Shown: piece by piece, positions 10,062 through 22,250 of the stretch
Layout of the letters: each line of letters opens with the position of its first letter
Numbering within the stretch: position 1 is the stretch's first letter
NCBI RefSeq assembly: GCF_058153355.1
Contig: NZ_CM177019.1
Strand: one strand, 5' to 3'
Length of the DNA: 64,000 nucleotides
Notes under the pieces: generated by a model
Told to the model about the DNA's origin: nothing
The model's input: the letters and a program-made list of their open reading frames with translations, nothing else
Database searches by the model: none
Position numbers and translations under genes: made by a program

Positions 10062-10820
10062 ATGAGCCTGACCCTCACACTTACTGGCACTGGCGGCGCA
10101 CAGGGCGTTCCCGCATGGGGCTGTGAGTGTGCGGCCTGCGCCAGAGCGCAGCGCTCACCGCAGTATCGCCGCCAGCCATGCAGCGGCGTCGTGAAGTTTA
10201 ACGAGGCGATCACCCTGATCGACGCCGGGCTGCACGATCTCGCCGATCGCTGGTCGCCCGGATCGTTCCAGCAGTTTTTGCTGACGCACTACCATATGGA
10301 TCACGTGCAGGGGCTGTTTCCGCTGCGCTGGGGCGTGGGCGATTCTATCCCGGTCTACGGCCCGCCGGATGAACAGGGCTGCGACGATCTGTTTAGACAT
10401 CCGGGCCTGCTTGATTTCAGCCACACGGTGGAGCCATTTGTGATGTTTGATTTGCAGGGATTACAGGTCACGCCGCTGCCGCTCAACCATTCGAAACTCA
10501 CTTTCGGCTATCTACTGGAAACGGCACATAGCCGGGTGGCGTGGCTGTCTGACACCGCAGGCCTGCCGGAAAAAACGGTGAAATTTTTACGCAATAATCA
10601 GCCGCAGGTGATGGTGATTGATTGCAGCCACCCACCGCGCGCGAATTCGCCACGCAATCACTGTGATTTAAACACCGTGCTGGCGCTGAATGAAGTTATC
10701 CGCTCGCCGCGCGTGGTTCTGACACATATCAGCCATCAGCTTGATGTGTGGCTGATGGAGAACGTACTGCCGTCAGGGTTTGAGGCGGGGTTTGATGGGA
10801 TGGAGATTGGGGTGGAGTAA
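10062..10820 (+). CDS. phnP: Metallo-beta-lactamase-fold phosphodiesterase PhnP
   Basis: 252-aa ORF with HxHxDH metal motif ([10 protein letters not shown]); last gene of the operon. Confidence 0.9.
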
Positions 10821-10854
10821 TGGGTGAGGGGCGATGCCTGCTCTAAACTCAACA

Positions 10855-11184
10855 TCACCGCCCATACTCATCTTCCATTCTCCGCTCTTCATCTTCTAGC
10901 TGCCGACGCTCCTGATCCAGCTGGCGCTGGCGATCGTCCAGCTGCCTGCGGCGATCTTCAAACTGGCGGCGGCGATCGTCATATTGTCTGCGCCGATCGT
11001 CGTTCACTTCACGCTGCCAGCCGTCGTCGCGCGAATCTTCATAGTCTCGCCCACGGTCAGGGTTATAAGCATCGTTAATCGCCTGCTGAATATTGCCAAT
11101 GGTGTCGTCGATAATATCGGCCTGGGCCGGAACGGTGGACAGCGTGAGCAGGGTGAATAAAAGAAATAGCGGAAAACGTTTCAT
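10855..11184 (-). CDS. yjdP: Small secreted low-complexity protein YjdP
   Basis: 109-aa ORF with signal peptide (…TVPAQA/D) and Asp/Arg/Gln-rich repeats (DDRRRQYDDRRRQFEDRRRQLDDRQRQL); position next to phnP as in K-12. Confidence 0.75.
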   Translation of the reverse strand: MKRFPLFLLFTLLTLSTVPAQADIIDDTIGNIQQAINDAYNPDRGRDYEDSRDDGWQREVNDDRRRQYDDRRRQFEDRRRQLDDRQRQLDQERRQLEDEERRMEDEYGR

Positions 11185-11252
11185 TAGCCAACCTCAAAAA
11201 GAAACTCTATCCACATTAGTCATTACTCATCCATGCAAGTAGTGGATGAATC

Positions 11253-11570
11253 TCAATTTTTCCGCTGCTCTATTGCCGTAATCGCCTCCACGCGTTGTTG
11301 ATGACGACCGCCTTCGTACTGCGCGCCCAGCCACGCATCCACAATCATTTTTGCCAGTTCGAGGCCAACCACTCGTGAACCAAAAGCCAGTGCAACTTCA
11401 CTGGCGTAATGCGGATAATCAGTGCGCTCTGACGACCTGGTTTCTTTATCAATCCCCTCACTCATTGACCATGAATAAAAGGCTGGCACAGCAACGCAGA
11501 ATCCTGCGGTGCCAGCGACATGACCGCCCATTGCTCCGGTACGTTTTTTAATAAGAAATACCGGTTGCAT
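11253..11570 (-). pseudogene. rpiB: Truncated ribose-5-phosphate isomerase B (rpiB) remnant
   Basis: 105-aa ORF whose C-terminal ~65 aa (…SSERTDYPHYASEVALAFGSRVVGLELAKMIVDAWLGAQYEGGRHQQRVEAITAIEQ) resembles the RpiB/LacAB C-terminus; the central Gly-rich catalytic segment is missing and the N-terminal 39 aa look unrelated or frameshifted. Full RpiB is about 149 aa. Confidence 0.55.
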
Positions 11571-11822
11571 TGATTAATTGTGCTCAGTATTTGCCGAAGT
11601 ACAATATATATAATAAATATATAAAACACCTCATATTATTTACAGAGATAATAAATTCGCGTACTTTTCCCTCTTCAGCACAAATGCCTAATAAAATGGC
11701 TCGTTCCGCTCACACTTCCACTTATTAAAATCGCAATTTCCCAATTATGATAACGCCAGCTTTAAATGACGTATTTTGCATGGATTACATATTTACGACA
11801 CAAATGATAAATGGAGATTTAT

Positions 11823-13808
11823 ATGAATAACTCTCGGTTATTCCGTTTGAGCAGGATTGTTATTGCGTTAACTGCCGCCAGCGGCATGATGGTAAATACC
11901 GCTCACGCAACAGATGAAGCGAAAGCCGCCACTCAATATACCCAACAGGTTAATCAGAATTACGCCAAATCATTACCGTTTAGCGATCGTCAGGATTTTG
12001 ACGATGCCCAGCGTGGATTTATCGCTCCGCTGCTGGATGAAGGTATTCTGCGTGATGCGAATGGCAAAATTTACTACCGCGCGGATGATTACAAATTTGA
12101 TATTAATGCCGCTGCGCCGGAAACCGTAAACCCCAGCCTGTGGCGTCAGTCGCAGATCAACGGCATTTCTGGCCTGTTCAAAGTCACCGATAAAATGTAT
12201 CAGGTGCGCGGCCAGGATATCTCTAACATTACATTCGTTGAGGGCGAGAAAGGCATTATTGTTATCGACCCACTGGTGACGCCGCCTGCCGCAAAAGCCG
12301 CACTTGACCTTTACTTCCAGCATCGTCCGCAAAAACCGATTGTTGCTGTTATTTACACCCACAGCCACGCCGACCATTATGGCGGTGTGAAAGGCATTAT
12401 CTCTGAAGCGGATGTTAAATCTGGCAAAGTGCAGGTGATCGCTCCGGCAGGCTTTATGGACGAAGCCATCAGCGAAAACGTGCTGGCGGGTAACATCATG
12501 AGCCGCCGTGCACTTTACTCTTACGGCCTGTTACTGCCGCACAACGCGCAAGGTAACGTGGGCAATGGGCTTGGCGTGACGCTGGCAACGGGCGACCCGA
12601 GCATTATTGCGCCAACCAAAACGATTGTCAGAACTGGCGAGAAGATGGTCATCGACGGTCTGGAGTTTGACTTTCTGATGACTCCGGGTAGCGAAGCTCC
12701 AGCCGAAATGCACTTCTATATTCCGGCCCTGAAAGCCCTGTGTACCGCCGAAAACGCCACGCATACCTTGCACAACTTCTACACCCTGCGCGGCGCGAAA
12801 ACCCGCGACACCAGCAAGTGGACAGAGTATCTGAACGAAACGCTGGATATGTGGGGTAACGACGCGGAAGTACTGTTTATGCCGCACACCTGGCCGGTCT
12901 GGGGCAATAAGCATATCAATGATTATATTGGTAAATATCGCGATACTATCAAATACATTCACGACCAGACCCTGCACCTGGCGAACCAGGGTTACACCAT
13001 GAATGAAATCGGCGACATGATTAAGCTGCCACCTGCGCTTGCCAATAACTGGGCCAGCCGCGGCTATTACGGTTCTGTTAGCCACAACGCCCGTGCAGTG
13101 TATAACTTCTATCTCGGCTATTATGACGGCAATCCAGCTAACCTACATCCGTACGGTCAGGTGGAGATGGGCAAACGTTACGTGAAAGCGCTGGGCGGTT
13201 CCGCCCGTGTCATCAACCTGGCGCAAGAAGCGAACAAGCAAGGGGATTACCGCTGGTCAGCAGAGTTGCTGAAACAGGTGATTGCTGCCAATCCGGGTGA
13301 CCAGGTGGCGAAGAATCTGCAAGCGAATAACTTTGAGCAGTTGGGTTATCAGGCCGAGTCCGCCACCTGGCGCGGTTTCTACCTGACCGGCGCAAAAGAG
13401 CTGCGCGAAGGGGTGCATAAGTTCAGCCACGGCACCACCGGTTCTCCGGACACCCTTCGCGGGATGTCGGTCGAAATGCTGTTCGACTTTATGGCCGTTC
13501 GCCTCGATAGCGCGAAAGCCGCAGGTAAGAATATCAGCCTGAACTTCAATATGAGCAACGGCGATAACCTCAACCTGACGCTGAACGATAGCGTGCTTAA
13601 CTACCGTAAAACGCTGCAACCTGAAGCCAACGCCTCTTTCTACATCAGCCGTGAAGATCTGCACGCCGTGCTGACCGGACAAGCCAAAATGGCCGATCTG
13701 GTGAAAACGAAGAAAGCCAAAATTATTGGCAATGGCGCGAAACTGGAAGAAATTATTGCCTGTCTGGATAATTTTGATTTGTGGGTGAATATCGTAACCC
13801 CAAATTAA
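11823..13808 (+). CDS. yjcS: Metallo-beta-lactamase-fold alkyl/aryl-sulfatase-like protein YjcS
   Basis: Track ORF trimmed to MNNSRLF… (661 aa); signal peptide; HSHADHYGG metal-binding motif; AT-rich promoter region upstream. Confidence 0.85.
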
Positions 13809-21984: not shown

Positions 21985-21986
21985 TG

Positions 21987-22250
21987 TAGGCCTGATAAGA
22001 CGCGGTAAGCGTCGCATCAGATATTAATGTCGGATGCGGCGTAAACGCCTTATCCGACCTACAAAATCACCCTAAATCAAGCTATTGCGCAGTCTGGCGT
22101 AGGCCTGATAAGACGCGGCAAGCGTCGCATCAGGCATTGATGTCGGATGCGGCGTAAACGCCTTATCCGACCTACAAAATCACGCTAAATCAGGCTATTG
22201 CGCAGTCTGGCGTAGGCCTGATAAGACGCGGCAAGCGTCGCATCAGGCAT
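21987..22250. repeat. BIME/REP array: five REP palindromic units in alternating orientation, about 113-bp period
   Basis: Repeated units TAGGCCTGATAAGACGCGGCAAGCGTCGCATCAGGC and GTCGGATGCGGCGTAAACGCCTTATCCGACCTAC, with near-identical 113-bp repeats starting near 21987, 22100 and 22213. Confidence 0.85.

Follow-up and report, generated by a model that had tools for sequence, protein, structure and literature searches.

The D-allose regulon of Escherichia coli K-12 has been described previously (Kim 1997; Poulsen 1999; Sorensen and Hove-Jensen 1996, as cited in PMC2808357 and PMC13192267). The als genes are missing from several other strains. In EAEC 042, als is absent and no growth on allose was found with Biolog plates (PMC2808357). 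The non-use of allose by E. coli W has been explained by the absence of als (PMC3032704), and an inability to use allose was predicted for PCN033, which lacks alsBACEK (PMC4578781). Among metabolic models of Escherichia, allose use is predicted for only 34% (PMC9393557). In EHEC O157:H7, the site between yjdP and yjcS is occupied, instead of als, by OI-167, which carries lmvK/lmvR and mannose/lyxose utilisation genes (PMC10128022).

We analyzed the same site in a 64-kb stretch of DNA (hereafter the window), an E. coli-type chromosome segment that runs from the phn operon to ubiA/plsB and is collinear with strain Z0117EC0005. When the window was compared with 5,426 complete E. coli genomes, the closest match over 25–50 kb had about 98.1–98.2% identity. 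The short region described below was by itself 99.5% identical to Z0117EC0005 and 2013C-4282. The window may come from a lineage that has been little sampled, or it may be a recombination mosaic. Synteny is conserved on both flanks, with phn-yjdP on one side and yjcS-ytcA-mdtN on the other; yjdP is 97–98.5% identical to its K-12 counterpart, and YjcS shares 98.3% amino acid identity with K-12 YjcS across 661 aa. The yjdP–yjcS interval (11185–11822), however, is 638 bp long, compared with 7,270 bp in K-12 MG1655, where it contains rpiB, alsR, and alsBACEK. The features are as follows.

10062–10820, plus strand: phnP (ORF and gene layout).
10855–11184, minus strand: yjdP, encoding a DDRRRQL-repeat protein, the intact left flank (ORF; annotated in the closest genome).
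11185–11252, no strand assigned: native 68-bp spacer from the rpiB stop to the yjdP start (in the block 11185–11390, 98.5% K-12 identity).
11253–11390, minus strand: rpiB 3' remnant, the last 138 nt, codons ~105–149 plus stop (blastn block 10822–11390 against K-12).
11253–11570, minus strand: chimeric ORF of 318 nt and 105 aa, labelled RpiB/LacA/LacB by PGAP (ORF, BLASTP, HMM).
11385–11390, minus strand: junction of deletion 1, one hybrid copy of the CTGGCT direct repeat, AGCCAG on the plus strand (junction display, rpiB allele alignment).
11391–11458, minus strand: rpiB 5'-proximal remnant of 68 nt, nt ~86–153, codons ~29–51, strongly diverged (blastn).
11455–11458, no strand assigned: junction of deletion 2 (~6.55 kb), where rpiB nt ~86 meets the terminal ~16 nt of alsK (displayed alongside K-12, E. 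whittamii, and L005, a divergent Escherichia allele).
11459–11474, plus strand: last ~16 nt of alsK, with the TGA stop at 11472–11474 (blastn of 11469–11520 against K-12 and of 11455–11523 against L005).
11482–11516, plus strand: retained hairpin downstream of alsK (fold −22.1 kcal/mol, z = −4.8).
11521–11598, no strand assigned: 78-bp orphan segment specific to this allele, absent from the alleles compared.
11599–11822, plus strand: native AT-rich region upstream of yjcS, the alsK–yjcS intergenic region of als+ strains (92–94% K-12 identity).
11823–13808, plus strand: yjcS, encoding an alkyl sulfatase, the intact right flank (ORF; annotated in the closest genome).

With a probability of about 90%, we conclude that a deletion at the rpiB-alsR-alsBACEK locus left an inactive scar in the window, and that this scar is an inherited allele, old and common in E. 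coli. It is identified as such by conserved synteny of the flanks, by sequence homologous to the lost block on either side of the gap, and by an intact locus in close relatives. Because the rpiB pieces lie on the yjdP side and the alsK end with its hairpin lies on the yjcS side, the site is a deletion scar and not a place that was never occupied. Relative to the K-12 locus, which occupies the same site with flanks 92–98% identical and shows homology to the remnants in rpiB and the alsK 3' end, ~6.7 kb is missing here (159 bp plus ~6.55 kb) and 78 bp is extra; no als gene is left in the window and the RpiB active site is lost. The als operon had already been called absent, and rpiB a remnant, in the initial annotation, and both calls were borne out by alignment with K-12 and by tblastn. 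With K-12 proteins as queries, tblastn found no als gene within the 64 kb; the Als queries gave just generic ABC-ATPase similarity (23–31% identity) in phn and elsewhere. The annotation had read the remnant as the RpiB C-terminus only. That end is indeed kept and the central segment lost, but a 68-nt piece covering codons ~29–51 also survives. What had been described as about 240 bp of AT-rich DNA before yjcS corresponds to 11571–11822 (252 bp, 31% G+C), mostly the native yjcS upstream region. Beyond that description, the present analysis revealed two deletions and a 78-bp orphan, and an allele that is not specific to the strain.

To determine the anatomy of the scar, we used blastn and inspected the junctions by hand in displays against K-12, E. 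whittamii, and divergent Escherichia. The K-12 alignment proposed earlier defined breakpoints at both junctions and microhomology at the internal one. Deletion 1 removed 159 bp in frame, so that rpiB codons 52–104, or equivalently 54–106, are gone. In K-12, the direct-repeat copies GCACTGGCTGTTG and GTGCTGGCTTTTG are spaced 159 bp apart; in the window, there is a single hybrid copy, GCACTGGCTTTTG. The repeat is perfect over 6 bp (CTGGCT) and matches at 10/13 positions when extended, in agreement with the earlier observation that the internal junction falls between CTGGC-containing segments. As read from these alignments, the surviving rpiB piece is shown to have lost the 159 bp between CTGGCT repeats, which may have occurred by slipped-strand or short-homology recombination. 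This loss resembles the short-direct-repeat deletions of bacteria that are ascribed to slipped-strand or illegitimate recombination. A side effect of deletion 1 concerns the native rpiB hairpin: a T-run now follows it directly (GCCAGTGAAGTTGCACTGGC|TTTTGG; window 11386–11405, minus strand), creating a terminator-like site within the remnant ORF.

Deletion 2 is of a different kind from those short-direct-repeat deletions, as it has accompanying orphan DNA and microhomology that is possible but at most 3–4 bp (CCT). Compared with K-12, ~6,549 bp is gone, comprising the first 85 nt of rpiB, alsR, alsB, alsA, alsC, alsE, and nearly all of alsK. The sequence comparison shows that an als+ ancestor lost ~6.55 kb, from rpiB codon ~29 to ~16 nt before the alsK end. 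Illegitimate recombination is a plausible route for this larger deletion. The 78-bp segment lies next to the retained, terminator-like alsK hairpin. The sizes agree, since 159 + 6,549 − 78 gives ~6,630 bp and the observed difference is 6,632 bp. The hairpin stem carries a compensatory change (GUUGGCAC/GUGCCAAC in K-12 versus GCUGGCAC/GUGCCAGC in the window), and the alsK-downstream counterparts in K-12 and E. whittamii fold too.

The papers on 042, W, and PCN033 report a 'complete absence' of als and do not describe remnants, two junctions, or a 78-bp orphan; the likeness of these strains to the window lies in the published absence of als. In the literature searched, we found no description of the fine structure of the scar, namely its two junctions, microhomology, hairpin, orphan, and chimeric ORF. 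The absence of als and the loss of growth on allose are already known, and the fine anatomy adds detail to a known phenomenon.

The 78-bp orphan is the part of the scar that als+ alleles do not explain. It was found in no als+ genome among the 5,426 complete E. coli genomes, and E. whittamii, L005, and the OI-167 carriers hold no counterpart. A sensitive local alignment with shuffles detected no origin within the K-12 als region. Likewise, the loci of Escherichia, Kluyvera, Salmonella, and Pluralibacter gave no match, and neither did phage or true plasmid records; the apparent 'plasmid' matches were E. coli records of 0.37 to 4.9 Mb that contain the same chromosomal scar. One explanation is that a third cassette or mobile element displaced als and was itself deleted later, leaving the orphan as its last trace. 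The lack of any homologue in als+ alleles fits this idea, as does the behaviour of the yjdP–yjcS interval as a replacement hotspot, with a right boundary at ~11599–11603 common to the als+, OI-167, MOD1-EC7003, and scar alleles. However, these searches gave the orphan no match in OI-167, at the outgroup loci, or among phage and true plasmid records. It also occupies a single place per genome and has no recognisable element end, which argues against an origin in a repeated or mobile element. Moreover, with the alsK hairpin lying between the rpiB remnant and the orphan, a simple deletion with filler DNA explains the arrangement equally well. We therefore consider a lost third cassette unlikely.

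We then considered how far the deletion scar extends among genomes. The identical architecture was present in 1,567–1,568 of the 5,426 complete E. coli genomes (~29%) according to two independent queries. An intact K-12-type als locus was present in 3,367 and the OI-167 island at the same site in 411; other arrangements of the interval accounted for ~80 genomes, NT1W25 being one example. Among the sampled copies, the architecture was the same in 26/26, and scar alleles differed among themselves by up to ~3.7% over a 646-bp interval. Carriers include HS, an O111:H8 strain, and an ST69 strain (the last by collinear coverage), and als+ carriers include K-12 and LF82. We take HS and K-12 to belong to phylogroup A, O111:H8 to B1, ST69 to D, and LF82 to B2; on this assignment, the scar allele crosses phylogroup lines. 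By megablast, whose detection limit is roughly 85% nucleotide identity, scar genomes covered just 6% of the K-12 als region; therefore, these genomes have no second als/rpiB copy at ~85%+ identity. Judging from these other scar-bearing genomes, als would also be absent elsewhere in the source strain of the window.

The yjdP–yjcS interval is thus a hotspot with three states, als, scar, and OI-167; it illustrates cassette turnover neatly but introduces no new principle. OI-167 occupies the same interval as the scar and has a right flank 98–99% identical to that of the window, but it is a functional replacement cassette of ~9.3 kb, whereas the window has als remnants and no cassette. In O157:H7 NE1127 (L068 6579–15729), the ~9.3-kb island encodes a hybrid sensor kinase, a sugar ABC transporter, a D-lyxose/D-mannose isomerase, an aldolase, a kinase, and a response regulator, and the replaced DNA starts directly at the yjdP start codon. 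Window positions 11660–11830 are 98–99% identical to the OI-167 carriers O157:H7 and Escherichia sp. E1V33 (L068 15857–16027; L062 9838–10008), and the wider flank (11599–11830) has just ~92% identity to K-12, which suggests that flank haplotypes do not track cassette state. In Escherichia sp. MOD1-EC7003 (L003 9632–9766), an isolated phnO fragment (aa 14–58) abuts the yjcS upstream region at ~window 11603. The 10 kb upstream of this fragment contained no other window-like phn sequence and no als genes; this arrangement is a larger rearrangement at the same hotspot.

A scan of metagenomes with a 25-mer of the orphan yielded 18 contigs, 17 with ordinary scars and one without the 159-bp deletion (L083, contig OGGX01003690.1, 2593–3506). 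The latter has deletion 2, the hairpin, and the orphan, but its rpiB is unbroken from codon 29 to 149. We did not accept it as an ancestral intermediate, because its 159 bp has 100% K-12-type states, its switch to scar-type states sits in a 24-nt run common to both allele types, and no such arrangement was found in the 5,426 complete genomes (0/5,426). It is probably a chimera or a rare recombinant.

The two rpiB remnants differ sharply in divergence. The 138-nt 3' remnant shows 0–4 differences from E. coli als+ alleles. The 68-nt island shows 7–9 differences (10–13%) from these alleles and 5–6 from the divergent allele L005, and the E. coli als+ alleles differ among themselves at only 0–1 of the 68 positions. 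Identity to K-12 over 11381–11460 was 88.75% by blastn. For the most extreme allele pair alone (8/68 versus 0/138), Fisher's test gave p ~1e-4. Three of the island differences are shared with the divergent SCPM allele. Among the others, three alter the protein (V to G, G to E, and W to R) and one is silent, a pattern to be expected of a decaying pseudogene. Because heterology borders the island on both sides, it is barred from recombining with als+ alleles. Recombination may have made the flanks uniform with als+ alleles, whereas the small island would have retained its old divergence, and with it the true depth of the allele. This pattern points to an old scar allele, and not to a recent private deletion, that would then have spread or persisted across several phylogroups.

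A stronger version of this idea is that the scar is an ancient presence/absence polymorphism, older than phylogroup diversification or imported from divergent Escherichia, and kept at intermediate frequency by selection, not drift. The 10–13% divergence of the island, the three states shared with divergent Escherichia, and the uniformly open ORF hint in this direction; selection might act, for example, against a costly als operon or in favour of the fused 105-aa product. On this evidence, such a selected polymorphism seems improbable.

Both remnants contribute to the 105-aa ORF. In BLASTP against K-12 RpiB (E = 4e-35), ORF residues 38–62 correspond to RpiB 29–53 and residues 63–105 to RpiB 107–149, and the 53-residue gap between them is the missing central segment. 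ORF residues 1–37 are not RpiB; this part is translated from sequence antisense to the alsK 3' end and its hairpin and from the 78-bp orphan. RpiB residues 1–28 and 54–106 have no counterpart in the ORF, and with them Cys66, Thr68, and His99 are missing. Cys66 is the catalytic base of RpiB, and roles have been assigned to both Cys66 and His99 (PMC4783025, citing Roos 2008); we checked the positions of these two residues in the K-12 sequence. In profile searches, the ORF scored 77 bits with TIGR01120 (cut-off 138.65; K-12 RpiB 255.7) and 61.7 with TIGR00689 (cut-off 88.3; K-12 RpiB 211.1), and Pfam PF02502 matched it at model positions 102–138 of 138 only. The ORF thus contains no full-length RpiB domain above a curated cut-off. 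Given these scores and the partial Pfam match, it does not qualify as a functional RpiB or as a full-length representative of any other family; the latter outcome would have spoken against the deletion proposed initially. ORF residues 8–20 (KKRTGAMGGHVAG) were also considered as a diverged RpiB N-terminus (KKIAFGCDHVG). This candidate was rejected; DNA alignment traced the stretch encoding KKRTGAMGGHVAG to the complement of the alsK hairpin and orphan and gave no significant similarity to the rpiB 5' region.

PGAP annotates the ORF as an 'RpiB/LacA/LacB family sugar-phosphate isomerase' CDS, with no pseudogene flag, in every complete genome inspected. Its frame, free of frameshifts and stops, is open in 26/26 sampled copies (9 complete genomes and 17 metagenome contigs), which comprise 15 nucleotide alleles. 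These facts would suit a functional, neofunctionalised small protein under selection, in which the C-terminal helix region of RpiB is joined to a new N-terminus. So would a modest over-representation of synonymous variants, which number 8 against 11 nonsynonymous when two sites in multiply-variable codons are reclassified by hand. However, the excess is not significant. A codon-level script assigned the 19 variable sites of the 26 copies to 6 synonymous and 13 nonsynonymous changes (binomial p = 0.28), and the 8/11 split gives p of about 0.06–0.07 by our estimate, with a similar value for the 9-allele set; given transition bias, the variation appears indistinguishable from neutrality. When so few sites (19) segregate, chance alone would be expected to leave the frame open. 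There are nine protein variants, some with non-conservative changes (G/V, R/S, G/C, Y/S). Furthermore, the ORF has none of the catalytic residues, a scan of 10800–11950 for promoter-like sites was negative on both strands, and direct reading showed no Shine-Dalgarno-like motif before the ATG at 11570 (GGCAAATACTGAGCACAATTAATCA|ATG). A search of 10700–12000 likewise returned no Rfam RNA family. One natural strain has the ORF truncated by IS903B. We therefore regard a selected small protein as very improbable. The 105-aa ORF is best read, on its sequence, as a pseudogene remnant with a small residual chance of function.

The insertion in question is in NT1W25 (L067 4051–5331), where IS903B lies in the scar at ~window 11509 and shortens the remnant ORF to an annotated 237 nt (78 aa). 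In this strain, yjcS and ytcA are lost alongside the insertion.

The gene content of the scar allows a prediction of phenotype. A carrier would have neither the allose transporter nor the allose catabolic enzymes and would be expected to have lost allose utilisation. Since the fused ORF lacks the RpiB active site, the cell would also be without a second ribose-5-phosphate isomerase; RpiA, encoded outside the window, is expected to supply this activity. The source strain is thus predicted to lack both D-allose use and RpiB, which agrees with the loss of Cys66/His99 and with the published Biolog data (PMC2808357). This prediction bears on metabolic models and on debates about rare-sugar sweeteners and the gut flora (PMC9393557). 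As for annotation, the PGAP 'RpiB/LacA/LacB' CDS in ~1,500 complete genomes is a pseudogene fragment and should not be counted as a second ribose-5-phosphate isomerase.

Whether the state in the window is ancestral or derived, a point raised in the initial annotation, was settled by genome comparison in favour of a scar derived from the als+ state. If close relatives had no als or rpiB genes at this site, the deletion would have lost its basis; 3,367/5,426 E. coli genomes and E. whittamii carry them. The K-12 layout is found in E. whittamii and also in the divergent 'E. coli' SCPM-O-B-8794. In Kluyvera georgiana, Kluyvera genomosp. 3, and S. enterica arizonae, phnP-(yjdP)-yjcS are directly adjacent, and no rpiB/als traces were found in these empty sites. 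The empty outgroup sites suggest that als/rpiB was probably inserted on the lineage leading to Escherichia; as they have no remnants and the scar does, the scar derives from an als+ ancestor. It is hardly credible, then, that the window preserves an ancestral empty yjdP–yjcS junction, with als an insertion in K-12-like strains only: the adjacency in the Kluyvera and S. enterica arizonae genomes invites this view, but the window contains two rpiB fragments (E = 4e-35) together with the last ~16 nt of alsK and a hairpin colinear with K-12, none of which occurs in the outgroup empty sites.

A Pluralibacter MAG (L023 942–1196) has phnP-yjdP followed by a partial rpiB (aa 64–148, 88% identity), so that rpiB–yjdP adjacency is not confined to Escherichia. 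In this MAG, ~8.8 kb of unrelated genes, including a 1,478-aa ORF, separate the partial rpiB from yjcS.

Several smaller polymorphisms were seen in the window. The phnP–yjdP gap contains ~111 bp of extra DNA in K-12 and HS that is absent from the window (10820–10855) and LF82. The extra DNA (L002 13198–13345) holds inverted repeats of the type CCCTCTCCCC...GGGGTGAGGGG and looks like a small repeat-element polymorphism. YjdP also differs in length among strains, presumably through variation in repeat number: the protein of the window has 109 aa, and two als+ strains (L094 901–1248, L095 901–1257) encode versions of 115 and 118 aa. Finally, window positions 21986–22246 gave self-overlapping matches to the reference genome, offset by ~113 bp, which suggests a short tandem or dispersed repeat.
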